The notes under the pieces were generated by a model, which saw only the letters and a list, made by a program, of their open reading frames with translations, was not told the origin of the DNA and made no database searches. DNA of 44,098 nt from a virus (Duplodnaviria > Caudoviricetes), in the IMG/VR virus record IMGVR_UViG_3300043218_000060, positions 1-44,098 of that record. One strand, written 5' to 3'. This document shows positions 5,000 to 40,171 of this stretch, piece after piece (within the stretch, counting starts at the first letter, position 1; each line of letters begins with the position of its first letter). A program made the translations under genes and the position numbers.

Positions 5000-5233
5000 T
5001 TAAGCCTCCTTGTTTATTTTTTCTATACTGCTGTACAGGCTTGCCTTTGATGGCATGAGATTGCCCATACTGAACTCTAGTTCCGTAACTTCATCAACGA
5101 CTTTATCTATTTGATTCAGCCTTATCATGTACCGGCTATGCGTCTCAGTGTCGAACGCGTTGACTACCCTTCCGATCCAGGTGCCGGTACGCTCATGTTC
5201 AGCGCTGATTATGTCGCCTCTTTTGAATTGCAT
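5000..5233 (-). CDS. Hypothetical protein
   Basis: 77 aa ORF with SD GAGAGGA. Confidence 0.65.
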   Translation of the reverse strand: MQFKRGDIISAEHERTGTWIGRVVNAFDTETHSRYMIRLNQIDKVVDEVTELEFSMGNLMPSKASLYSSIEKINKEA

Positions 5234-5251
5234 TTAAGTCCTCTCTTTAGC

Positions 5252-5351
5252 CCAGCCCAGCCCCGTCACCATGACAGGGCTTAAGGTTTGGGCTGGTAGT
5301 TGATTGCCCATGCGTACCGGATCTGGGCGGTATTTATAAGGGCAATCAACT
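5252..5351 (-). promoter_or_regulatory. Tandem long hairpins in intergenic leader
   Basis: Perfect 12-bp inverted repeat 5298-5309/5340-5351 plus nested stem 5252-5296. Confidence 0.6.
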
Positions 5352-9629: not shown

Positions 9630-9992
9630 TTACTCCTCCTCGTATACATTGACTTCATCGGCTAGGATTTTATTGTAAAGCCTTACCCTGTGCCATTCGG
9701 CTTTAGAGAAGTTAGGGGCATCGTCGTCATAGTACATGGCATCCGTAAAACTTAGCACAAGCTCATTACAGTGGTCTTTAACTTTATGCTTTAAGCTACA
9801 AGTAGAACAGTTTAACCTACCGTGGTTTTGTTTCCTCACTTCGTTGCAATGTCCACAGCCCCTTGCTATTGGCAAATCATCCCAACCTATACTGTTATCA
9901 AATGGCACCTTATCCCGCATCTTTTGCAAGATAAGCTTACCGCCCCATTTCTTCAACGATGCTGTATGGTTCTTCCTTGATATTTTGCTCAT
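9630..9992 (-). CDS. Cys-containing hypothetical protein
   Basis: CGHC and CSTC motifs; tightly packed in operon. Confidence 0.65.
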   Translation of the reverse strand: MSKISRKNHTASLKKWGGKLILQKMRDKVPFDNSIGWDDLPIARGCGHCNEVRKQNHGRLNCSTCSLKHKVKDHCNELVLSFTDAMYYDDDAPNFSKAEWHRVRLYNKILADEVNVYEEE

Positions 9993-10246
9993 GGTTGCTC
10001 CTTGTCCTGTACTCTATAATGTTCTTCTCTTCTTAAATCGTCTTCACGCCCTTGGCTGTCTGGGTATGAGCTTATATATTCACTGTCCCATTCTATTGTT
10101 GATTTCTTATAATTAGGGCTCATGTCATTATTGAAGCATTTTTCGCATATACCATAATCAACGTTTTTATCATGTATACAATATCCTGTCTCTTGACACT
10201 TACATACGAATCTTTTTTTATTTTGTTTTCTTGCTCTTCTGCCCAC
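9989..10246 (-). CDS. Cys-containing hypothetical protein
   Basis: CxC and CxxC motifs; 4-nt overlap with next gene. Confidence 0.6.
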   Translation of the reverse strand: MGRRARKQNKKRFVCKCQETGYCIHDKNVDYGICEKCFNNDMSPNYKKSTIEWDSEYISSYPDSQGREDDLRREEHYRVQDKEQP

Positions 10247-10722: not shown

Positions 10723-10951
10723 TTTGGGGCTCCTTAAATATAAAGCTTTTCATCATTAATCTTCGGGCAGCTTTTACGTCTCCAACTGAATAACATTTTA
10801 TTATTTCTTGACATTCGCCTAGTTTATCAGATAGCTCTTGATTGAGTTTAATAAATCTATCGCAATGCTCTCTCAGTTTGTCGTTTTCTGCTAGGAGACC
10901 TTTTAAATAACTTTTACAATCTTTTTCTGACAGTTCATCTACGTTTATCAT
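10712..10951 (-). CDS. Small coiled-coil protein
   Basis: 79 aa, SD AGGAGAGG. Confidence 0.65.
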   Translation of the reverse strand: MINVDELSEKDCKSYLKGLLAENDKLREHCDRFIKLNQELSDKLGECQEIIKCYSVGDVKAARRLMMKSFIFKEPQNAT

Positions 10952-10967
10952 CTTTCCTCTCCTTTTA

Positions 10968-11045
10968 TGGTATCGGGGCGGCTAGGGGTTATCTTCATGC
11001 CCTTACCTTCTCCTAGACACTAGGTGCTGGCGGTTTACCGCCCCG
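10968..11045 (-). promoter_or_regulatory. Structured leader/RNA element carrying the sRNA-like 21-mer
   Basis: 9-bp outer stem 11045-11037/10982-10974; motif at 11034-11014; 3' ACCA. Confidence 0.6.
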
Positions 11046-11049
11046 TAAA

Positions 11050-11232
11050 TTATAGCTCCCTTATCTTAAACTCTGGGCATGTGCCCCTTGCCTTAACTGT
11101 TCTTCTTTTGCCCGAATTTTTCGGAATTAAACCACAACAATAAAGATAGTAATAGTCCTTACTATAACCAAAAAATTCTCTTCTGGTTTGTTCTACCCAA
11201 TGACAGTTTTTGCAATGTTGTTTCCTCTTCAC
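11050..11232 (-). CDS. Small Cys-rich (possible Fe-S/Zn) protein
   Basis: CKNCHW...CCG...GTCPEF. Confidence 0.6.
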   Translation of the reverse strand: MKRKQHCKNCHWVEQTRREFFGYSKDYYYLYCCGLIPKNSGKRRTVKARGTCPEFKIREL

Positions 11233-12388: not shown

Positions 12389-12419
12389 ATAGTATTACAC
12401 AGCCTTACACCCTTGTCAA
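12389..12419 (-). promoter_or_regulatory. Leftward early sigma70 promoter
   Basis: TTGACA at 12419-12414; -10 candidates AATACT (17 bp) or TACTAT (19 bp); TTACAC direct repeats in the spacer. Confidence 0.65.
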
Positions 12420-12490: not shown

Positions 12491-12706
12491 ATGAATAAAA
12501 AAAAGTTTGAAATACTAGAAAAGGTTTTCGCTGCTGAGATTTCTGGCGGGTTATATCAAGGCAAGAATCAAGCCATAAGAACGTTAGAAAAAGACGGATA
12601 CGTACAAGAAATTGAAAAAACATTAGGCACTGATCGTTTTGGGCTAATTAAAGTTAAAGGTTATGTAACCACCTTTAAAGGTAATTTTTATTATTGTACT
12701 AATTAA
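12491..12706 (+). CDS. Small protein, probably leaderless (71 aa)
   Basis: ATG 7 nt after the -10 box, no SD; the ORF-track start at 12455 lies in the -35 box. Confidence 0.6.
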   Translation: MNKKKFEILEKVFAAEISGGLYQGKNQAIRTLEKDGYVQEIEKTLGTDRFGLIKVKGYVTTFKGNFYYCTN

Positions 12707-13021: not shown

Positions 13022-13732
13022 ATGAGCGACAAGGGTTTTATTGTGCTATCTAACAAGGTTGTTAGAAGTGAGCGTCTTGACGTATATGAGAAGGCTCTTT
13101 TTAGCGTAATATTGTCATATAATGGGTGTGAAGATATATACCCCTCGCACACCACATTGTCTAAACAAACTGGCATGTCAAGAAGCCAAATAATAAGAAC
13201 ACAAAAGAAATTAGTTAAAAAAGGTTACTTAAAAGTGAAAAAAAGCCCCTCCTACAGGTCAAACCTATACAGCGTTACAGAGAAAGGTGTGTCTGACAGG
13301 AACATCAATGTGTCTGACAGCGACAGGGGGTGTGTCTCACAGACACAGGGGGGTGTGTCTCACAGCGACACTAATAATATAAGTATTAATAATATAAGTA
13401 TAAAAGAAAAGAAAAGTATAAAAGAAAAGTCGCCTGCTCGGAATAATGGATTACCTGGTTGGTTAGACAAAGAGATATGGGCTGAATGGATAAAATATCG
13501 CAAACAAAGAGGAAGCACTTTAACACCATCCACCATAAGCGCACAGCTTAAAAAGCTTGAGAAATATCAAAAGGATCATGTAAAAATAATTGAGCAATCT
13601 ATAGAACACGGTTGGATTAGGCTTGTTTACGAGTTAAAAGAGCAAGGTACTCGAAATAATCGAGGATCTGAACATAGACCATCAAACTTTATAGAAGCGG
13701 AGGAGGGGAAATATGACCATCTTGACGATTAA
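13022..13732 (+). CDS. Replication initiator (lambda O-like, N-terminal winged HTH)
   Basis: YPSHTTLSKQTGMSRSQI...L...GY, SNLY; internal iterons; C-terminal W..WIKYR...IEQSIEHGW domain; followed by loader. Confidence 0.88.
   Translation: MSDKGFIVLSNKVVRSERLDVYEKALFSVILSYNGCEDIYPSHTTLSKQTGMSRSQIIRTQKKLVKKGYLKVKKSPSYRSNLYSVTEKGVSDRNINVSDSDRGCVSQTQGGVSHSDTNNISINNISIKEKKSIKEKSPARNNGLPGWLDKEIWAEWIKYRKQRGSTLTPSTISAQLKKLEKYQKDHVKIIEQSIEHGWIRLVYELKEQGTRNNRGSEHRPSNFIEAEEGKYDHLDD
13288..13430 (+). repeat. Replication origin: four iterons plus AT-rich tract
   Basis: TGTGTCT(G/C)ACAG at 13288, 13309, 13331 and 13354, then repeated TAATAATATAAGTA and A-tracts. Confidence 0.85.
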
Positions 13733-14393: not shown

Positions 14394-14423
14394 TTGACAA
14401 AACAATACAATGTTTGGCATATT
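14394..14423 (+). promoter_or_regulatory. Putative promoter of the late/packaging operon
   Basis: TTGACA-18 bp-CATATT with a TG extension. Confidence 0.6.
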
Positions 14424-14455: not shown

Positions 14456-14500
14456 GGAGGGAGATCAAAAGTTTCTGATATGTTCTTTTGATCTCTCCCC
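14456..14500 (+). promoter_or_regulatory. 13-bp leader hairpin
   Basis: GGGAGATCAAAAG/CTTTTGATCTCTC; no U-tract. Confidence 0.65.
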
Positions 14501-28879: not shown

Positions 28880-30712
28880 ATGGCTGGATTTACAGTACCA
28901 ACTAAGCAACGACAAGTAGCACCTACCGCATTACCATCGGCGCGTCAGATATCGCCGGCCGGCCAAGGCGACTTTGGCGGATTCGAGGCTGATGTTATCG
29001 GCAGGATCGGTGGACAGGTCGAGAGGTTAGGCAGGACAGCTCTTGCAGTTGAGGAAAAAGAAAGGGTGCTTGCGGCGAAAGCGGAAGCGAAGAAGCTTAA
29101 AATACAAGCCAAATTCAAAGAAGAACGAGATAAATTATTTGCACAAGATGCTGTTATAAAATATCAGGATTGGTGGCGTAATCAAGAACCGACATACACA
29201 AGCAAAACAGGTTTAGCTGCTGATGGTGTCACAGACATAGCGATTAAAGACATAGAAGGTTTTAACAAAACACTTTTAGCTAAGTTAGAAAATGACAATC
29301 AAAGAGAAAAAGCCCTTGCAAAGATAATGTCAGAAAGAAATTCAGGATTAACGGGCATAAAGGGGCACGAAGTAAGTGAGTTTAAGCTATTAAAGGAAAA
29401 GCAGAATGAAGGAATAATAGCTAATTCGATAAATATTGCGGCGGCTTCTGTGGGCAAGTTGCATGAAGAAGGTACTATATTCAGTAAATCGCTTGACCTT
29501 AAGGATGCAATAACAGAGAAAACCAAGGGGTTCTCCATGGAAGCGGCTAAAAATGTTAGTGATGAAATCTGGTCATCATTCCACGAGAGCATATTGAATC
29601 GAAAGGTAGCTTTAAACGCCGTGGACGCAAAAGAATATTATGATAAAAATAAAAAGCAAATATTACCCGATAAGCGAGATGCGATAGAGAAACTCTTAAA
29701 AAAAGAAGGTATAATCCAATATTCTCAACAAAGGGCTGATGAAATTGTTTTAACTGAACCTGATAGTTCAAAGTGGGCTGAAATCGGGAGAAAAGAAAAA
29801 GACCCAGAAAAAAGGGATGCGACTGTAAAAAGATTAAAAACAAGAAAGACAGAATTAGATCAAACAGACAAAGATGCGCAAAAAGAGGCTTATCTTGATA
29901 CTCTTGATAAAATTGCTAATGTTGCGAAAAACGAAGAGGAAGGATTGGATTTTGCAGCAAACCTAGAGAACCCGGAAGATCAAATAAAAGCCGAGAAGGT
30001 CGCAACTGAACGGTTTAAAAGGAAAGAGAAAGATGCTACTACTAGCAGAAAGGTACAAGCCAAAGTATTAGAGATGATTGAAAATAAAGAAATCACAAGA
30101 CCGACAGAGCTGATAGAGTTTTACCCTGATTTAAGAGACAGTGATTATAATACAGCATTGACAAGGCTAAAGAACCAGGGGAATGTTGACGCTAAAGGAT
30201 TTGTAAAATATGAAACTGCCAAGAAAGCGTTTCAGCTTGTAAACGATGAAAAGTTTGATGTTGATAGCGAAGCGCAAGCAACAAACTTTATGTATAGTTT
30301 AGAATATTTAGATAAAGAGGCTCAAGCACTCGGAAGGGATTTAACGGCAGTAGAAGCAAATAAATTAACCCGACAAGCATTTATTGACGGCAATGTTGAA
30401 AGAGAAAGTTTTACTATTTTGGGTTATGATATATCTCAAGAAGGCGCCGCCCTGACGTTACAAGAGGCTGTATCAAAAGGCGTTCTTGATAAGTGGACAG
30501 CCGATGTAAACGATGACAGTGTTGATGGTGGCGTAGAAAGAAAACAGATAATTGACGCTTTAAGAAAGCAGGGGATAATCACAGAGGATGAGACTGTCCT
30601 CAGGCTCTACAAAAAAGAGGCGATATTAAAGCTAGAGCTATCCCAAAAACAAAAAGAGTTGTTGAATAAGAAAATAAATAAGATCGGCGTGATAAGGTCG
30701 ATAAAGAGGTAG
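28880..30712 (+). CDS. Internal virion (ejection) protein, gp15-like
   Basis: 610 aa helical protein in ejectosome position. Confidence 0.7.
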   Translation: MAGFTVPTKQRQVAPTALPSARQISPAGQGDFGGFEADVIGRIGGQVERLGRTALAVEEKERVLAAKAEAKKLKIQAKFKEERDKLFAQDAVIKYQDWWRNQEPTYTSKTGLAADGVTDIAIKDIEGFNKTLLAKLENDNQREKALAKIMSERNSGLTGIKGHEVSEFKLLKEKQNEGIIANSINIAAASVGKLHEEGTIFSKSLDLKDAITEKTKGFSMEAAKNVSDEIWSSFHESILNRKVALNAVDAKEYYDKNKKQILPDKRDAIEKLLKKEGIIQYSQQRADEIVLTEPDSSKWAEIGRKEKDPEKRDATVKRLKTRKTELDQTDKDAQKEAYLDTLDKIANVAKNEEEGLDFAANLENPEDQIKAEKVATERFKRKEKDATTSRKVQAKVLEMIENKEITRPTELIEFYPDLRDSDYNTALTRLKNQGNVDAKGFVKYETAKKAFQLVNDEKFDVDSEAQATNFMYSLEYLDKEAQALGRDLTAVEANKLTRQAFIDGNVERESFTILGYDISQEGAALTLQEAVSKGVLDKWTADVNDDSVDGGVERKQIIDALRKQGIITEDETVLRLYKKEAILKLELSQKQKELLNKKINKIGVIRSIKR

Positions 30713-33700
30713 TGATGTCAGAAGCTTCGTTTTTTAGTAAAATAGATAAAGTTCCTAACGAAGAGAAACAGCAAATAGCCGTAAGCGAGAACTCTCCTTC
30801 TGAAAAATCCTTTTTCTCTAAGGTAGATGCGCTTAATCCTGAGAATGAACAAGCAAAATTTAATCTTAACATTACCCAAGATTTAAGCCCAGATCAAGAG
30901 GCAGAGAACTATAAGTTATCAAAAGATTCCGGCATACCCACGTCCATTGTAAGAGAAGATCCCGCCAAAGTGAAAAAGATGATAGACGCCCCTGCATTCG
31001 GACAAATCGATCCTTCAAAGCTAAAGAATTATTATAGCAGATTCCAAAATGCGGCTATATCAAGAGATGATGAAGAAGAGCTTGTAAATATACAGACCAC
31101 TTGGGATAAGACTAAACAATCATTTGAAGAGGGCAAGGTAGACACGCTCATAAACTATTGGACGGCGAGACGAGAGTTGCTTGGTTTTGATCCGAACATA
31201 GCGAACGAACAGATAAGGAAGCTTGAAGAACAACGCGCACAGTTTGAACCATTTGAAGCGGAAGGCTTTTTTGAAAAGGTATTGACCGCAACATCGAGAC
31301 AGATACCTCAACAGATATTGGCGGCTGAAAAAGGGTTAGAGCGCGCGCCATTAGGCGCGGTGGTAGGCGCGGCCGGTGCTGCAGCATTGGGTTTATTAGA
31401 ACCATCTCCGCTTGAAGAGGTTGTAACTTTCCCACTATTAGCGACAGCGGCGGCAGGCGCGGGTCAGGGCTTTATTGTCGGTAGAGCAGAGAGCATGTTC
31501 TATCAAGAGTTCGGCGGCGCTTTCAGAGAATTTACAGAGATAAAAGACGAGCAGGGCAACCCACTCGATCCGAACATTGCCAAAGTTATGGCTTTGGGTG
31601 TTGGCGGCGTTAATGCCTCCTTAGAGTTCGCATCATTCAAAGCTGTTGTTAAAACGTTCCCGGGCGGTGATAAGATATTCTCTAAGATAAACTCTAAGCT
31701 TATAAAAGAGGTTGTTAAAAGCCCTACAATACGAAAGAAGTTAACAGACATTGCTTTGAGAGCGGGTACGGCATGGACAACAGAAATAGCAACGGAAGTA
31801 TTACAGGAAATATCCAACGTGATATTCGGTGAGATCGGCAAGAAACTACAGGAAAGAACAACCGATGCGGAATTTAAAGGCTTTGAATGGGACGCTTTCT
31901 TTACAAGGCTTGGCGCGATAGCATCGGAAACGGCATATTCTGCTTTAGGTTTTATGCTCCCGGGTACTGCTGTTAGCACCGGCAAGGCAGTTGCGGATTC
32001 CACGATAAGCAAAAAGTTTCATGACGATAATAACCAGATGAAAGAGGTTATTGACCAGAGCAAGACACAGCAAAGAAGCCCTGACCATTCAGAACAGTTC
32101 CTTGAAATAATCGGAATGGGGCAACCTGTCTATATATCTCCTGAAGGGATTGAGCTATTATACCAAGAGAACACAAAAGACGAGGCTGATGCGATATTAA
32201 AGAAGGTGGGCTTGAACCCTGAAAAGACTAAGGCTACAGCCGCCACAGGCGAAGATATAGAGGTAATTCATTCCAAAGCACTATCACAGCTGCCAAGAGA
32301 AGAGTTTGACAAAATATCAAAGGATATGAAGCCCGCACCAAGCGGATATACTCAAAGAGACATAGAGCAGGGGATAGATCAAGACGATGTAGAAGCTACC
32401 GTCAAAGTGTTCGCGGAAGAGACGAAGCGTCAAAGGGAAATAAACCAAGAGATAACAAGGATACAGGAAGAAGGTAAGAAAGCGGGATTAACAGAGGAGA
32501 CAGTTGAGACAACACCAGCATTGATGAAGGGATTAGCGAACAGATTATCATTAGAAGATGTTGACCCTGTAGCATTTCTAAAAAAGATAGGCATTAAGAA
32601 AACCACATTAGAAGAGATAAAGGGATTCTTTCAACCTGAAAAGGGCGCACCACCAAGAGCGGCTATCCCATTGACAAACGAGAGTCATCTAATCAACCTC
32701 TTTGAGGGTGCGGACCTGTCAAGCGTCCTGCATGAAGTGGGGCATATCGCATTAAAAGAATATAACAATCTGGAGGTCACCAGGCAAGCATCAGAAGAGC
32801 TTATAAAGGATATGAATGCCTTTAGAAAATTTGTAGGTGCAAAAAAAGGGCAGGAATTTACAAGAACGCAATCAGAGCAATTCGCAAGAGGCTTTGAAGC
32901 CTATCTCATGGAAGGTAAAGCCCCAACGGTAGAATTAGCCTCTGCATTTGAAAGATTCAAGAGATGGCTTTTAGAGACTTACAAGACTGTGAAGTCTTTA
33001 GATGTTACTCTGAATAATGATGTGCGCCAAGCATTCGACAGAATGCTATCGGCTAACCTTGAAGTGGAAGCAATCGCGCAGACTAAAGGGTTCACCATAA
33101 AGACAGTTGATGAGATGAAAGCTCTAGGCATGAACGATGCGGATCAGAAGTTCGCTAAGTTCCAAATAGAGAAAACAGTAAGGAAAGCAAAGCAACGCTT
33201 GACAAAAGCGCGTAACACAGGCTATCGAGAGAACGTAAAGGAATGGCGAGAAGAGGCAAGGCGTGAAATAAGAAACGAGAACCCGACATATAAAACAATG
33301 AGTTCTATCGTCGCGGACGGCAATCAAATAGACAGAGATGAATTTGTTGAAAGATATGGTGAAGAAGCTATAAAATTATTACCTACTACAAGGATATTAA
33401 AAAAACGAGTTGGTGACAAAGGCGGGCAATCAATGGATATGGTTGCTGCTTTTTATGGCTATGATGATTATATTGAAATGATAAATGCGTTCTTTGACAC
33501 ACCAAAATTCAGCGTAGCCGTTGACCAGAGAGTCAATAATAAAGTATTAGCACATGACGCACAGTTCAGCGCAGAGGACTTTATCGTTGACTTGCCGGAA
33601 TATAGGCAATATTTAAACATCATATCGCGGAACATCAACAATAAAGGAGTTGACGAGGCAACCTTAGAGGCTGGTATTGAACGAAATAGGGGCAGGTGGG

Positions 33701-36507
33701 AAACAAAAGCCACAGAAGAGATACAATCAGAATCGCCAGAGCTTGAAGGCGCAGAGCTAAATAACGCAATAGAGGCACGTATAGACGAGAAAATAGAGGC
33801 TTTCAGGAAGAAGCAAGGCAAGCCATCAATCATATCATCTGCCCGGATAAAACAACTCGCTAAAGACACGATGAACGCTAAGACAGTGAGAGACGCAAGG
33901 GCGCAGCATATATACTTATCTGCAATGAAAAAGGCGGCTTCTGATGAGCGCAGGGCTATTTTGCGTAAAGATTGGGATGCGGCATCTAAAGCGAATGAAC
34001 TACAACGCTTCAATTATGAGATGGCAAGCCTGTCAAAGAACGCTAAAGATGAAGTGAACGTTGTATTAAAAAGAGCTAAGAGGACCGGCAAATCTAAAGT
34101 AATCGACTTTGAACATAGGGAAGCTATACTACACTTGATAAACCGCTACAATCTTGCATCGTTAGTGCCTAGTAAGCCCGAACTGATACCTGAATATAAT
34201 AAACTATTCGCAGGTGATGATTATGGCAATGACGGCTATCAAGTGCCTGATTTCCTGTTTAGCAATACCGCTAAAGACTTCCGCGATCTCACATTAGAAC
34301 AGTTTAAAGACTTAGATAATGCGATAAGATACTTAGCCGGTCAGGGCAATATAGGCAAGAAAGATACATTGTCTGATGGTGAAACCCTTTTACAAGATGT
34401 TATTGATAAATCTGTAGCAGTTCAAAGCACTGTTAAACGCCTTAAGGTATGGGAAAAGGGATCGTTGATGCGAAGGATAACCGATCCTGCCAGGAAGTTC
34501 TTTTCTCTGTTCGACAGCTTGACATTTGAAATGAAATCTGTTGATGGCTATACTAACCTTGGCAAAGATGGCAAGGTCGGACCAGCAGAGCAATTTGTTA
34601 TGAATCCAATAAAGGACGGACTCGATGCTTTAACCTTACAAAACAAAGAGATAAGCGAGCAACTAGCCCCACACCTTAAACAAATAAGCAAGACTATCCG
34701 AAAATGGCATAAGCAGTTCGGTAACAATATCAGGATAAAAGGCGCACCCGTGCCTTCGTTGATGCGCGCAGATGGTCAGACAAACGGATGGAGAGCGCAA
34801 CAGATATTCGCGGTTGTATTGAATACGGGCAATATTGGCGAGACAAGCAACTATGCTAATCTATTGGCTGGTTATCCTGACTTAACGCCCGGTATAGTAG
34901 AAACTATCAAAGATATGTTGTCTCAAAAGGATATGGATGCAATGCAAGGGATATGGAATATTATAAACTCTTTATTTAAACAGGTTGATGAGCAACATAT
35001 AAAGATAAAGAATTATGGCATGTCAAAAGTAGAAGCAACCCCTTTCAACTTTAAAGGTAAAGAATATCAAGGCGGTTATTACCCGATCAGGCATGACAGG
35101 AATTTGTCTTATGCCGTAGAGGATAGAGGGCGCGTGGAGGATTTATTCAATAATGAAGCGGCTAAAATACAAGTGCCATACACTAAGTCAGGTCAGACCA
35201 TAAAGAGATTGAGGGGCGCTGCATTGCCGATTCTCTTGGATCTTAGCGTTATTGATAGCCATATAAACGATACTCTCCATTATATACATTTAACCGATGT
35301 AGTAAAGGACGCGGACAGAATAACAAGAAGCCATGATTTTAGGGCGGCGGCTATCCGTATCTTAGGTAAAGATGTTTATAATACTATCCGACCGGCTCTC
35401 CAACATATTGCAAATCCGAAAAGGGCGGGGCTTGACCAACCGGGCGCAAGACCAGTTGAATGGATGCGTGGACTATCAACGCTCTATGTTCTTGCATGGA
35501 ATACGGGCGTTGCGATTAAACAGCCATTATCAACGTTTGGTGCGATTAGAGACATGGGCTTCCGCGCTTATATTGATGGATTCTCTTCTACTTTAATGTC
35601 GCCATCGGTACATTATCAGAAGATGATCGACTTATCGCCGTATATGCGGGATCGTTTAAAGTCATTTGATAGAGAGCTAAGATCGGCATTTTTAAAGCTT
35701 ACCAAAGAGCAGCGCGGCATTTATTTTGGTGATACTAAGGTAACGTGGCAGGACGTTAAAAACTTCGGGTTCTGGCAGATAAGGGTTGCAGATACCGTCA
35801 CGGTATTACCTATATGGCATGGCGCGTTTAACGATAAGCTTAACGCGGACCAGTCTAATTTAGAAGAGGCAACAAGGTATGCGGATGATCTCGTTAGAAA
35901 CTCACAGCCAAGCGCACAGCCTTTGGATTTATCTACATGGCAAAGAGACGGTGGCATTATAAGATTATTCTCGCAGTTCCAAACATTTACGGTAGGCAAA
36001 TACGGGCAGCGACAAAGACTCCATTATCGGGCGTGGCGTAATAAATCAATCTCAACACTTGATTATGCGTGGTTCAATTTCATGGATGCGTTCTTACCTT
36101 TGGCTGCCATTAATATGTTACAAGCCATTATCTGGGGTAGAGACTTAGAAGACGATGAGACACAGCTTGACATATTATTTGAGATAGTGCAAGGGTGGGC
36201 TTTGATGGGTGTACCATTTGCAAGGAACATAGTAAGGGCTGTAACCGGCTATGGTAACCCGATAGATAGCCCCGTATTGCAAGCAGGTAATAAGGCGGTA
36301 CAGGGTGTTATAAAAGGCGCGCGAGGCTTGAACGGTTTTAAAAACAGAAAAGAACGAGAAGCGGCGTTATGGGGGATCGGTCATACAATATCAATATTAT
36401 CCGGCGTGCCTGTATCAAAGATAGTTAGCAGGGCAGAACGTGGCGCAAAGGCAAAGGACGCAGCACCGGGCATAAAATATCTAATTCCGCCACCGCGCGG
36501 TAAATAA
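30712..36507 (+). CDS. Large internal virion/ejection protein with zincin-like metallopeptidase motif
   Basis: 1931 aa; ADLSSVLHEVGH...EQFARGFEAYLMEGKAP; hydrophobic segments. Confidence 0.8.
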   Translation: MMSEASFFSKIDKVPNEEKQQIAVSENSPSEKSFFSKVDALNPENEQAKFNLNITQDLSPDQEAENYKLSKDSGIPTSIVREDPAKVKKMIDAPAFGQIDPSKLKNYYSRFQNAAISRDDEEELVNIQTTWDKTKQSFEEGKVDTLINYWTARRELLGFDPNIANEQIRKLEEQRAQFEPFEAEGFFEKVLTATSRQIPQQILAAEKGLERAPLGAVVGAAGAAALGLLEPSPLEEVVTFPLLATAAAGAGQGFIVGRAESMFYQEFGGAFREFTEIKDEQGNPLDPNIAKVMALGVGGVNASLEFASFKAVVKTFPGGDKIFSKINSKLIKEVVKSPTIRKKLTDIALRAGTAWTTEIATEVLQEISNVIFGEIGKKLQERTTDAEFKGFEWDAFFTRLGAIASETAYSALGFMLPGTAVSTGKAVADSTISKKFHDDNNQMKEVIDQSKTQQRSPDHSEQFLEIIGMGQPVYISPEGIELLYQENTKDEADAILKKVGLNPEKTKATAATGEDIEVIHSKALSQLPREEFDKISKDMKPAPSGYTQRDIEQGIDQDDVEATVKVFAEETKRQREINQEITRIQEEGKKAGLTEETVETTPALMKGLANRLSLEDVDPVAFLKKIGIKKTTLEEIKGFFQPEKGAPPRAAIPLTNESHLINLFEGADLSSVLHEVGHIALKEYNNLEVTRQASEELIKDMNAFRKFVGAKKGQEFTRTQSEQFARGFEAYLMEGKAPTVELASAFERFKRWLLETYKTVKSLDVTLNNDVRQAFDRMLSANLEVEAIAQTKGFTIKTVDEMKALGMNDADQKFAKFQIEKTVRKAKQRLTKARNTGYRENVKEWREEARREIRNENPTYKTMSSIVADGNQIDRDEFVERYGEEAIKLLPTTRILKKRVGDKGGQSMDMVAAFYGYDDYIEMINAFFDTPKFSVAVDQRVNNKVLAHDAQFSAEDFIVDLPEYRQYLNIISRNINNKGVDEATLEAGIERNRGRWETKATEEIQSESPELEGAELNNAIEARIDEKIEAFRKKQGKPSIISSARIKQLAKDTMNAKTVRDARAQHIYLSAMKKAASDERRAILRKDWDAASKANELQRFNYEMASLSKNAKDEVNVVLKRAKRTGKSKVIDFEHREAILHLINRYNLASLVPSKPELIPEYNKLFAGDDYGNDGYQVPDFLFSNTAKDFRDLTLEQFKDLDNAIRYLAGQGNIGKKDTLSDGETLLQDVIDKSVAVQSTVKRLKVWEKGSLMRRITDPARKFFSLFDSLTFEMKSVDGYTNLGKDGKVGPAEQFVMNPIKDGLDALTLQNKEISEQLAPHLKQISKTIRKWHKQFGNNIRIKGAPVPSLMRADGQTNGWRAQQIFAVVLNTGNIGETSNYANLLAGYPDLTPGIVETIKDMLSQKDMDAMQGIWNIINSLFKQVDEQHIKIKNYGMSKVEATPFNFKGKEYQGGYYPIRHDRNLSYAVEDRGRVEDLFNNEAAKIQVPYTKSGQTIKRLRGAALPILLDLSVIDSHINDTLHYIHLTDVVKDADRITRSHDFRAAAIRILGKDVYNTIRPALQHIANPKRAGLDQPGARPVEWMRGLSTLYVLAWNTGVAIKQPLSTFGAIRDMGFRAYIDGFSSTLMSPSVHYQKMIDLSPYMRDRLKSFDRELRSAFLKLTKEQRGIYFGDTKVTWQDVKNFGFWQIRVADTVTVLPIWHGAFNDKLNADQSNLEEATRYADDLVRNSQPSAQPLDLSTWQRDGGIIRLFSQFQTFTVGKYGQRQRLHYRAWRNKSISTLDYAWFNFMDAFLPLAAINMLQAIIWGRDLEDDETQLDILFEIVQGWALMGVPFARNIVRAVTGYGNPIDSPVLQAGNKAVQGVIKGARGLNGFKNRKEREAALWGIGHTISILSGVPVSKIVSRAERGAKAKDAAPGIKYLIPPPRGK

Positions 36508-37708: not shown

Positions 37709-38152
37709 ATGGCAAAGATAGTCAAAGTAAAGATGACAAGGGTGCAAAACCAGGGCAAGATACAAAACACATATCCCGTGGAGTATGACTCTACAAAAAT
37801 ACAGATCATAGCGTATGAGGGCTTAAACGATGCTTCCAAACCGTATTGTATAGGTGTGGTTAAAGACACGGATTTAGCATCATTCACGGAAAGCTCTGAT
37901 ATAGAAGAGATAACCGAAGCGGAAGCCGAAACGCTCGGTGCTGCATGGCGTCCACAGGTGAAAAAGATGACTGATGTGAATAAAGTTATTGACATACTTG
38001 ATAAGCTGACCGTTGAAATAAGCGCATCTCTATCGTTAACACAAGCAGACAAAGACGCATTAAACGCTGACAATGCGACTGCTGGCATTAATAAGAGCGT
38101 AGCTTTTGCTGACATACTGACAATGGCGATAGAGAGGGTGAATAATGGCTGA
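37709..38152 (+). CDS. Hypothetical tail-associated protein
   Basis: 147 aa, SD AAGGAG. Confidence 0.65.
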   Translation: MAKIVKVKMTRVQNQGKIQNTYPVEYDSTKIQIIAYEGLNDASKPYCIGVVKDTDLASFTESSDIEEITEAEAETLGAAWRPQVKKMTDVNKVIDILDKLTVEISASLSLTQADKDALNADNATAGINKSVAFADILTMAIERVNNG

Positions 38153-38816
38153 TAATCTAATGAGCGCAGACCGCACTGCTGATTTAATATATAAACATGA
38201 CGGTTTTAGCACAACCATTCTCGATAGCATCGCAACGCCGGGATCAGATATTAGGAGCATAACTTGGGACGGTGATTTATATAGCATAGACCCTATTACT
38301 GATTTAATATATAAGCATGACGGTTTTAGCACAAATATACTTGATAGCATAGCAACGCCTTTAAATAATGGGTACGGCTTAACTGTCGATGTAGACGGTA
38401 ATATATATAGTGTAGACGCCGCTGTTAATTTAATGTACAAGCATGACGGTTTTAGCACAACTATACTTGATAGCACCAGCCCGCCTGGGTCAGGTTCTTC
38501 TTATGACATAACCACTGACGGGACTGACTTTTATGTCTTTAGAGGCAGTACAATTTATAAGGTAGAGGGTTTTAGCAATACGGTTTTAGATAGTTTTTCC
38601 GACCACTGGGCGAATGCTGGCTTGACGTGGGATGGTACGGACTTGTATGATTCAAACTATTCGCGAGACGATATATCTCATAGAGACGGGTTTAGCAGCA
38701 CCAAGCTAGAAACAATCGCAAGTCCCTCTACCGATCCTACCGGTCTTACATGGGAAAACTTCGATGCAAGGATAGGCGCTGGGGCAGTTTTTATCCCAAA
38801 GATTATGATAGTTTAA
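38145..38816 (+). CDS. Five-repeat beta-propeller-like protein (candidate receptor-binding)
   Basis: Five ~40-aa repeats IYKHDGFSTTILDS...GLTWDG. Confidence 0.7.
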   Translation: MADNLMSADRTADLIYKHDGFSTTILDSIATPGSDIRSITWDGDLYSIDPITDLIYKHDGFSTNILDSIATPLNNGYGLTVDVDGNIYSVDAAVNLMYKHDGFSTTILDSTSPPGSGSSYDITTDGTDFYVFRGSTIYKVEGFSNTVLDSFSDHWANAGLTWDGTDLYDSNYSRDDISHRDGFSSTKLETIASPSTDPTGLTWENFDARIGAGAVFIPKIMIV

Positions 38817-38823
38817 GGGGCTT

Positions 38824-39228
38824 ATGATGAAAGTAACAATAACAAGGCTCAAAACAGGTAAAGACGGTACGTTCGGGATAATCAATGTTGACCATAGATT
38901 CGCTTGTATGACGTTGGAGCTACCTGATAAGAATAACCAGAGAGATGTTTCGTGTATACCTGCCGGCAAGTATAGTATTGTACCTCATCAATCACCTAAG
39001 TTCAGGAAGGTATATAAAATATTAAACGTACCTAACCGCGCCAATATCCTATTTCATGTAGGCAACTATTTAGAAGATACTAACGGCTGTATCTTGTTAG
39101 GTCTTTATAGGAAGAGCCTTATGGTAAGCCAATCCCGCAAAGCTTTTGAGTATTTTTATAAGATCCTGAACTGGCAACCCGCTACCTTAACTATCAAAGA
39201 AGATTACGGGTTTGATTTTCCTGCGTAA
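38824..39228 (+). CDS. DUF5675-like protein, putative endolysin
   Basis: GTFG, TLELP, SCIPAG.Y, VP.R..IL.H.GN...DT.GCIL.G. Confidence 0.82.
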   Translation: MMKVTITRLKTGKDGTFGIINVDHRFACMTLELPDKNNQRDVSCIPAGKYSIVPHQSPKFRKVYKILNVPNRANILFHVGNYLEDTNGCILLGLYRKSLMVSQSRKAFEYFYKILNWQPATLTIKEDYGFDFPA

Positions 39229-39230
39229 CC

Positions 39231-39259
39231 AAAAAAGGCGACTCGTGTCATAGCCGCCT
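39231..39259 (-). terminator. Intrinsic terminator of sRNA and leftward operon
   Basis: AGGCGGCT-ATGACACG-AGTCGCCT followed by a T tract. Confidence 0.85.
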
Positions 39260-39300
39260 CTCGTGGTACCCTTCATTGTTAGACACAAGGTGCTGGTGGT
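39231..39300 (-). ncRNA. Putative ~70-nt small RNA
   Basis: Bracketed by its own promoter and terminator; no SD-led ORF. Confidence 0.7.
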
Positions 39301-39306
39301 GCTTTC

Positions 39307-39335
39307 AATATAGCAAGTTATGGGTGGGGCGTCAA
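39307..39335 (-). promoter_or_regulatory. sigma70 promoter for the sRNA
   Basis: TTGACG-17 bp-TATATT with TG extension. Confidence 0.8.
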
Positions 39336-39338
39336 GGG

Positions 39339-39563
39339 TTACCCCTTACATTCATCTATCTTATGGTCTCCACACCAATCATCTGAATAAACTACTGGAA
39401 ATCCGCTCATTGTTGGAGCGCGTCTACGACATCTACCGATAATATGGTCTGAGCGTTGTGTTGCATTTGTAACCTTTTCTATAAAAAACATACACGTGCC
39501 ACAGAGCATACCTTTGCTTCGATGCTGCCAATTGTCTCGTCCAGGCTTTTCGTTCTCGTTCAT
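39339..39563 (-). CDS. Small HiPIP-like Cys4 protein
   Basis: CGTC.FF...GRCRR..P...P.V...DWCG.H; SD AAAGGAGGTGA. Confidence 0.7.
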   Translation of the reverse strand: MNENEKPGRDNWQHRSKGMLCGTCMFFIEKVTNATQRSDHIIGRCRRRAPTMSGFPVVYSDDWCGDHKIDECKG

Positions 39564-39776: not shown

Positions 39777-40029
39777 CGTCGTGGTCTCCTGTTATTATTT
39801 TAAACCTTCCTTTTTTAATTTGTTTTTCAAATATGTTTATTTCTTCTTGCATTATATTAAATTTTGCTCTAAAAACTGGTTCTATATAGTCCTCTATGAA
39901 TTTATCTTGAAAAGATATGGCCATCTTCAGTTTAAATATTTCTTGGATTAATTCATGCTTGTTCATTTGGCTAAATCTCTCTACTTCTTTCCTCTGTATT
40001 TCAAGAATTTTTATCGCTGTTTCCATCAC
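39766..40029 (-). CDS. Hypothetical protein
   Basis: 87 aa, SD GGAGGGG. Confidence 0.6.
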   Translation of the reverse strand: MMETAIKILEIQRKEVERFSQMNKHELIQEIFKLKMAISFQDKFIEDYIEPVFRAKFNIMQEEINIFEKQIKKGRFKIITGDHDDDE

Positions 40030-40171
40030 TTCTCCCCTCCCAAGTGCCCGTTCTTAATTAGGTGGCCTTTATTGCCTATATTTTGTCCTTCTTTCATGTA
40101 TAACCCCTTAGTTTTTAACAGTTTTGTGCATGGCCTCTTTTTGTGTCTCACATTATTAATAAAATGCAACT

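Follow-up and report, generated by a model that had tools for sequence, protein, structure and literature searches.

Small RNAs of phages, according to the cited sections of the literature, pair with phage or host mRNAs, compete for Hfq or mimic CRISPR RNAs, and several described systems share features with the 39-kb locus of the phage studied here. All likenesses and differences given below refer to the cited sections of each source. In its proposed logic the locus resembles CsrB/CsrC and RsmX/Y/Z, in which a protein-binding element of mRNA leaders recurs in a free small RNA (PMC7366521), whereas the phage RNA has a single site, is phage-encoded and apparently has one cognate leader. The multiple GGA-loop hairpins of the Csr/Rsm RNAs are absent from it, and its 70-nt sequence holds no GGA. 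OmrA/OmrB offer a likeness in layout, that is, two RNAs with about 21 nt in common, located 5' in the stand-alone copy, and a terminator at the 3' end (PMC2588501). In contrast to that pair, the second phage copy is embedded and paired in an operon leader 28 kb away, and the 3' ends differ; OmrA/OmrB-type RNAs are two independently transcribed, terminated molecules with an exposed seed, a description that does not apply to the 11-kb copy. With IsrK of Gifsy-1, CI of P4 and C4 of P1 (PMC4825925), the phage shares a temperate-type early operon, a structured leader, an overlapping uORF and a short RNA that has sequence in common with the leader, although here the short RNA lies at a separate locus, shows no significant pairing with the leader and has no Rfam match. 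Predicted uORFs of the phage overlap the next gene at 10951 and at 40026, where translation may be coupled. In RNAs of the C4 kind the loops are complementary to elements on either side of the RNA in its operon leader; here, flanking complements of the seqA/seqC type amounted to only one 6-nt match in the 400 nt on each side of the leader.

PreS of lambda and VpdS of VP882 are also small intergenic phage RNAs, with a possible host target as a further likeness (PMC12197685); we detected no sequence similarity to them, and no counterpart of the leader-repeated copy is described in the cited sections. Racr, Cracr and the vsgRNA (PMC10651486; bioRxiv 10.1101/2024.10.29.618823; bioRxiv 10.64898/2026.06.01.729453) are comparable as promoter-driven, small intergenic phage RNAs ending at a terminator, but no CRISPR repeat or tracrRNA match was found for the 39-kb RNA, which in comparison with the vsgRNA (bioRxiv 10.64898/2026.06.01.729453) is too short (70 nt) and has no stem after the 21-mer. 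At the DNA level, mycobacteriophage operators and stoperators (PMC9283540) are likewise asymmetric sites, oriented with transcription and found at a promoter and in intergenic gaps. They number more than 20 copies of 13 bp as compared with two copies of 21 bp in this phage, where the many oriented copies of such a system, main early promoters included, are not seen. Set beside all of these, the 39-kb locus appears, on its sequence, to be a real, non-random and orphan promoter-sRNA-terminator unit, with the sRNA itself predicted and a paralogous arm in a bistable leader. Both RNAs are shorter than 80 nt and carry sigma70-type signals.

The 39-kb unit and the 11-kb leader

The window, meaning the whole 44,098-nt stretch analysed, represents a virus record that is complete and has a repeat of 127 nt at its termini. 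Family searches gave podovirus-type matches among its head and tail genes (GP7 capsid, Bbp16, a head-tail connector and internal virion proteins) and indicated that an O-like initiator and a DnaC-like loader serve replication; no integrase was recognised among the phage ORFs. Judging from gene order, a minus-strand early arm would run from the promoter at 12419 across the circle junction and meet the late arm at 39231, so that a single long operon would have the 11-kb copy close to its start and the 39-kb copy at its end (Table 1).

Table 1. Coordinates of the features discussed, numbered along the window; "motif" is the shared 21-mer
Feature	Position	Strand	Basis
Leader with predicted three-way junction, 72 nt	10974..11045	-	Fold; z -2.85, 1/200 shuffles equally stable
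Predicted 16-codon uORF; stop overlaps ATG (ATGA) of gene 10951-10712	10948..10998	-	Sequence
SD-like GGAGAAGG, 3' strand of P2, ahead of uORF	11006..11013	-	Sequence, fold
Shared 21-mer, copy 2 (19/21); junction strand, 5' strand and apex of P2	11014..11034	-	Sequence search
Alternative local hairpin, excludes P1 and base of P2	11029..11042	-	Fold
Last late gene, DUF5675 protein, convergent	38824..39228	+	Family search
Predicted primary sRNA of ~70 nt; weakly folded 5' domain and intrinsic terminator	39231..39300	-	Sequence, folds
Terminator hairpin (loop 39251-39244) and U6 (39236-39231); also ends early arm	39231..39262	-	Fold
GAAGGGTA; GAAGG pairs with motif CCAGC in MFE fold	39267..39274	-	Fold; probability 0.13-0.14
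Shared 21-mer, copy 1 (+1 to +21)	39280..39300	-	Sequence search
Sigma70-type promoter P39335, TTGACG-17 nt-extended -10 TG-n-TATATT	39307..39335	-	10/12 consensus matches
Last early-arm gene, 74-aa Cys-rich protein, unnamed viral family	39339..39563	-	Homologue search
Leader of 23-codon sORF, weak lead	40095..40152	-	Complementarity

The promoter P39335 begins 4 nt past the stop of the last early-arm gene, with its -35 at 39335-39330 and its -10 at 39312-39307, and the predicted start, A39300, is the seventh base past the -10. Genome-wide, 24 sites reach at least 10/12 consensus matches, and 7 of these 24 start with TTGAC. Four of the seven are intergenic (12455+, 12419-, 14394+ and 39335-), the other three being located where the leftward, rightward and late promoters are expected. 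The terminator consists of the stem GGCGGCU/AGUCGCC and an 8-nt loop (8 bp counting the A-U pair, or 11 bp with back-pairing of the U tract), and none of 200 shuffles was equally stable (z -4.61); a simple terminator scan, which listed 5 sites, missed it. In agreement with the original prediction, then, the promoter (10/12 matches), the start at A39300 and the 8-bp terminator with its U tract were all recovered. Own promoter, intrinsic terminator, intergenic gap and no translated ORF are the features of an sRNA gene, and from this anatomy a stand-alone sRNA is likely. The sole ATG inside it (39276) lacks an upstream SD, on which ground a small peptide was ruled out.

The 5' domain of the predicted sRNA is no better folded than shuffles (z +1.18), and the 21-mer is computed to be about 64% unpaired. 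In the MFE fold, CCAGC of the motif pairs with the downstream GAAGG, as it does in the leader. Pairing of the motif with the terminator loop, noticed earlier, could be longer than had been claimed, since nt 12-19 can form 8 bp with the loop and the 3' arm of the terminator; at -9.0 kcal/mol it is weaker than the terminator itself (-19.4 kcal/mol).

A search of both strands of the whole genome confirmed the same-sense 19/21 copy at 11 kb and found it to be the only second site within 6 mismatches. By itself a 19/21 pair is unremarkable, because 30 simulated genomes contained a mean of 2.03 pairs at this level or better. Both copies are intergenic, and when 14 spacers were shuffled with dinucleotides preserved, 19/21 was reached in 0 of 300 shuffles (best 18, twice). 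As the original prediction had stated, GAAGG(G)TA follows shortly 3' of both copies; the word occurs 13 times, and the chance of finding it within 10 nt is about 0.0015, a post hoc figure. The spacing of GAAGG from the 21-mer differs between the copies, yet it is the partner of CCAGC in both MFE folds. Similarity past the 21-mer is not significant (local alignment score of 14 versus a shuffle mean of 15.9). A third copy at 5187 was rejected, as it lies inside a 77-aa ORF, and a two-sequence model found no third copy within the window.

We describe here that the 11-kb copy is predicted to form the 5' strand of an irregular hairpin in a bistable three-way-junction leader, and that the partner strand in this hairpin, P2, would be the SD of the 16-codon uORF overlapping the next gene. 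P1 has 9 bp (11045-11037/10982-10974), and P3 has 4 bp and a 12-nt loop. The alternative hairpin, which uses CCGCC of the motif, is computed to be the first to form during transcription. Folded alone, the junction reaches -30.3 kcal/mol and the alternative -24.4 kcal/mol, as compared with -30.8 and -29.2 kcal/mol when 14 more upstream bases are included, so the gap between the alternative and the junction is 1.6 to 5.9 kcal/mol, according to where the boundaries are set. Because the alternative forms first and is near the junction in energy, the modelled leader looks switchable. The arm is 92% formed in isolation (pair probability 0.92) and 4% formed in a 221-nt context, and the mean unpaired fraction of the motif is 0.45 alone and 0.29 in context. 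A TATAAT without usable -35 is present at the 11-kb copy, where no terminator was found. Downstream, gene 10951-10712 opens a block running into AAA-ATPase/RecT recombination genes, and since it carries its own SD (10964-10956) the uORF need not matter.

Searches for relatives and pairing partners

The original prediction had not recognised the RNA family, and an Rfam 15 covariance scan likewise returned no family at the gathering threshold, nor anything near it, the best local matches scoring 15 and 15.4 bits against thresholds of 40 and 36; a tRNA/tmRNA scan gave 0 matches. Type III antitoxins of the ToxI kind consist of tandem pseudoknot repeats, and the 39-kb RNA has no tandem copies and no Rfam match. 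With nothing in the Racr supplements either, the earlier suggestion that it mimics a host antitoxin or defence RNA received no support.

The 20-mer had 0 matches in viral contigs, 2 in species genomes, both inside long stop-free frames, and 1 in metagenomes, in a CTAG-rich spacer without promoter or GAAGG. Judging from the translations, that spacer presumably belongs to a ribosomal-protein-like operon. Looser patterns produced 22 and 24 viral matches, every one of them (22/22 and 24/24) in stop-free frames of at least 100 codons, on one strand, and blastn against phages and plasmids produced short chance matches only. Neither element had a homologue in the viral contigs, metagenomes, species genomes, phages and plasmids scanned. 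The family of the 74-aa Cys-rich protein is widespread, with 39 viral loci and Atlas clusters without Pfam, and since a 10/12 promoter within 160 nt past the stop was found at 0 of the 39 loci with a homologue of this gene, the sRNA unit does not travel with it. The motif, allowing 3 mismatches, was present in 0 of 5 virus records.

The capsid query returned 1 viral locus and its alignment 8, and 11 capsid relatives (52-94% identity) exist, three of them on contigs of 41-45 kb; queries with DUF5675 and RecT gave no viral relatives. In the nearest relative compared (58% complete, capsid identity 59%) the sequence stops short of the matching region, and a match of the two-sequence model in it, at 14.9 bits, is antisense and within an ORF. 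A host survey found distant capsid matches in 7/401 and 1/401 genomes, from two phyla, and the motif in 1/101 genomes, this being the known chance match. The Atlas gives a hint toward Thermodesulfobacteriota, from 4 and 7 labelled members. One 3.6-Mb genome contained three distant capsid-family matches. Attachment-site repeats were rejected, no integrase having been recognised. In the literature, 15-nt words of the motif were not found, and keyword searches showed no matching system among the papers listed.

None of 70 phage start regions gave the sRNA a net binding stronger than -12.4 kcal/mol, which 23 of 25 shuffled seeds bettered; with the 11-kb leader it was only -3.8 kcal/mol. The earlier by-eye statement that the genome holds no complementary target was borne out computationally, save for a weak lead in the 40.1-kb leader of the 23-codon sORF. 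In this leader, 8 nt at 40148-40141 are complementary to the sRNA motif (11/12 with an extension over 40152-40141), and 9 nt at 40108-40100 are complementary to P3 of the 11-kb RNA; the latter lie over the SD, and the start codon pairs too (40108-40095). We rate the lead low because both RNAs bind it weakly in net terms (sRNA -8.2 kcal/mol, 11-kb RNA -1.1 kcal/mol) and the P3 duplex ranked 24th among non-self sites. The sORF itself (40097-40026, -) has an SD, and its stop overlaps the start of gene 40029-39766. Antisense pairing with 16S rRNA was rejected, as 9/60 and 21/60 shuffles were as good against one 16S gene from an unrelated, non-host genome.

The O-like initiator gene contains four iteron-like 12-mers (13288-13365, +), which probably mark the origin. 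Near-copies with one mismatch lie at 40142 (+, intergenic) and 37416 (-, coding), 2 versus 0.25 expected, that at 40142 falling among the bases of the 40.1-kb lead. An iteron site at the motif was rejected as being at chance level: matches with at most 2 mismatches outside the origin numbered 5 versus 3.95 expected, and it was a post hoc pattern that had looked significant.

Explanations for the repeated arm

The reading we favour, with a probability of about 0.3, is that the sRNA is a molecular-mimic decoy for a protein binding the 11-kb arm. From the repeat, its context and its folds, all of them computed, we infer transcription, protein and regulatory effect in the following way. Host sigma70 RNA polymerase would produce the ~70-nt primary RNA from P39335, a step that the sequence makes likely, and transcription would end at the early-arm terminator. 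The first ~32 nt could then act as a portable copy of the P2 arm, in which the 21-mer is followed by GAAGG and the same CC/GG-closed internal loop is possible. In the leader, according to the computed folds, the arm would bury the uORF SD and compete with the alternative hairpin; a phage or host RNA-binding protein would recognise and stabilise it there, and the free sRNA would titrate that protein, shifting expression downstream of 11 kb.

The decoy is favoured because the second copy is structured and SD-burying and because the two copies keep the GAAGG partner despite a difference in spacing. Two copies in the same sense and with no complement suggest that they have in common a ligand, an outside target or merely their descent; as there is no good phage complement, a shared ligand fits them better than antisense action does. 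The place of the promoter among the four intergenic TTGAC sites and the start of the repeat at the predicted +1 argue for the decoy; against it count the shared hairpin, just 13-14% populated in the sRNA, the low occupancy of the 11-kb arm (4%) in the 221-nt context and the one site per RNA, where Csr sponges have several. Nor did any phage ORF come out as an RNA-binding protein, or any collection scanned yield a homologue. In addition, a protein site would not need 19/21 identity over differently paired positions, which fits a recent duplication or a pairing seed equally well. For the decoy idea of the original prediction, the support is thus circumstantial: the 11-kb copy as a structured, SD-burying arm and the GAAGG partner in both copies speak for it, and the weak fold of the sRNA speaks against it.

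A more specific form of the decoy, somewhat less probable, is a phage-private circuit in which a dedicated protein keeps the bistable leader of the recombination genes in one state and the site has been copied behind a separate promoter, at the operon's far end, to serve as a single-site decoy. If true, this would be a Csr-like switch whose RNA motif is undescribed, and an example of an sRNA gene born by duplication of a cis element; as a regulatory design, a same-sense decoy for one particular phage leader would be a compact addition.

Close behind the decoy stand a host-targeting seed and a relic. The first, possible though doubtful, holds that the exposed 5' 21 nt are the seed of a trans-acting sRNA pairing with a host mRNA, and that the 11-kb junction is a processed sibling or a precursor. 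An unstructured 5' end, a motif that is mostly unpaired in the sRNA (~64%) and a terminator with U6 suit such a role, and the cited sections describe both host-targeting phage sRNAs, for instance PreS and VpdS (PMC12197685), and pairing by the OmrA/B 5' end, which is conserved to nt 21 (PMC2588501). The seed is, however, mostly paired in the 11-kb copy (unpaired 0.45 alone and 0.29 in context), which has neither a good -35 nor a terminator, and 16S rRNA pairing, for which an unrelated genome was used, was no better than shuffles (9/60 as good). A shade more doubtful is a reading without shared function, in which the early-arm terminator is an ordinary one, the 21-mer a short duplication of recent date, and the promoter silent or its product inert. 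About 2 such pairs arise per simulated genome, there is no significant similarity past 21 nt and no homologue in the collections searched, and the RecT-like annealing protein of the phage could copy short stretches; speaking against such a relic are the intergenic position of both copies (0/300 shuffles), a match that starts at the predicted +1 and a promoter that ranks among the main promoters of the phage.

The DNA operator, the antisense switch and the CRISPR mimic each fail a defining test or lack support. An asymmetric site acting at the DNA level is unlikely; in this reading the 21-mer would serve P39335 as an operator (+1 to +21) and, at its other copy, would be a roadblock within the early operon. 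Both copies are oriented with transcription, one of them at a promoter and the other in a short gap between genes, as L5-type sites are in the cited sections (PMC9283540). The phage encodes winged-helix and HTH proteins, and a 10/12 match to the origin iterons overlaps the 39-kb copy. Against this reading, L5 has more than 20 copies and this phage 2, neither of which lies at the divergent promoters near 12.4 kb; the iteron matches are at the chance level given above (5 versus 3.95), and the RNA folds would be left unexplained. Less probable again is a switch of the C4/CI/IsrK kind, in which the 40.1-kb leader, that of the sORF coupled to the last three early genes, would be the antisense target of the 11-kb junction as well as of the 39-kb sRNA. 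The 8 perfect pairs between sRNA and leader, and the 9 perfect pairs plus start codon for P3, are in line with it, as is the overlap of the sORF stop with the next start, given that IsrK acts through a coupled uORF in the cited sections (PMC4825925). Weak net binding of both RNAs, the rank of the P3 duplex, the shuffles that beat the best sRNA score and the poor binding of the sRNA to the 11-kb leader all argue against this switch, and Rfam gave no C4 match, while loop complements in the flanking 400 nt on each side reach at most 6 nt (one). We consider a CRISPR-related RNA the most improbable reading, whether the 21-mer is taken as a repeat-like unit in the style of Racr/Cracr or as a guide with the same-sense copy as its protospacer. 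The cited sections describe a Cracr that consists of a single repeat-like unit, a single spacer-like unit and a terminator (bioRxiv 10.1101/2024.10.29.618823). Just upstream of the 21-mer, ATTGAAAG resembles the end of a CRISPR repeat and gives a weak CRISPR-DR25 match (E 2), but it overlaps the -10 and lies upstream of the +1. Exact scans of genomes, metagenomes and viral contigs, of a kind that misses diverged repeats, found no array-like multi-copy match to the 20-mer, and 6 motif words had 0 matches in 9 Racr supplement files, including a 2,194-row SRU table. The RNA also has no repeat/anti-repeat stem or tracr tail, only ~49 nt follow the 21-mer as compared with ~89 nt for a whole vsgRNA, and no cas gene was recognised in the phage.

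Further observations on the phage genome

The sequencing runs listed as containing the phage comprise one DNA run and no RNA run. The DNA run is labelled as a marine sediment metagenome, may be the source of the phage, and shows it as one contig without variants. Temperate-type replication genes and excisionase-like HTH genes are present, yet without a recognised integrase. Directly 3' of the rightward promoter, a 71-aa winged-helix-like protein (12491-12706, +) is a candidate repressor or Cro analogue. Beside the 11-kb leader, 9989-10246 and 11050-11232 (-) encode small basic Cys-rich proteins, one of them with an Arg/Lys-rich N-terminus, which by inspection only are candidate RNA-binding partners. 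A RuvC-like gene crosses the circle junction (469 to 1, then 43971, -), with a weak NCBIfam match (E 8e-05). In the late arm, a 1931-aa internal-virion-type protein (30712-36507, +) carries an N-terminal LPD22 domain, and a 223-aa protein 3' of the tail fibre gene (38145-38816, +) has five coding repeats of 120-126 nt and no family match of weight.

Structured RNA was also seen elsewhere. An early-arm intergenic region at 5245-5340 (-) folds with z -3.31 and contains short CCAGC-like words, with no significant match to the motif, and an intergenic GC-rich hairpin of 9 bp lies just 5' of an early-arm SD (897-968, -). Finally, downstream of the late-type promoter at 14394 and ahead of the first late gene, a 13-15-bp hairpin at ~14456-14500 (+) is possibly an attenuator or a processing site.
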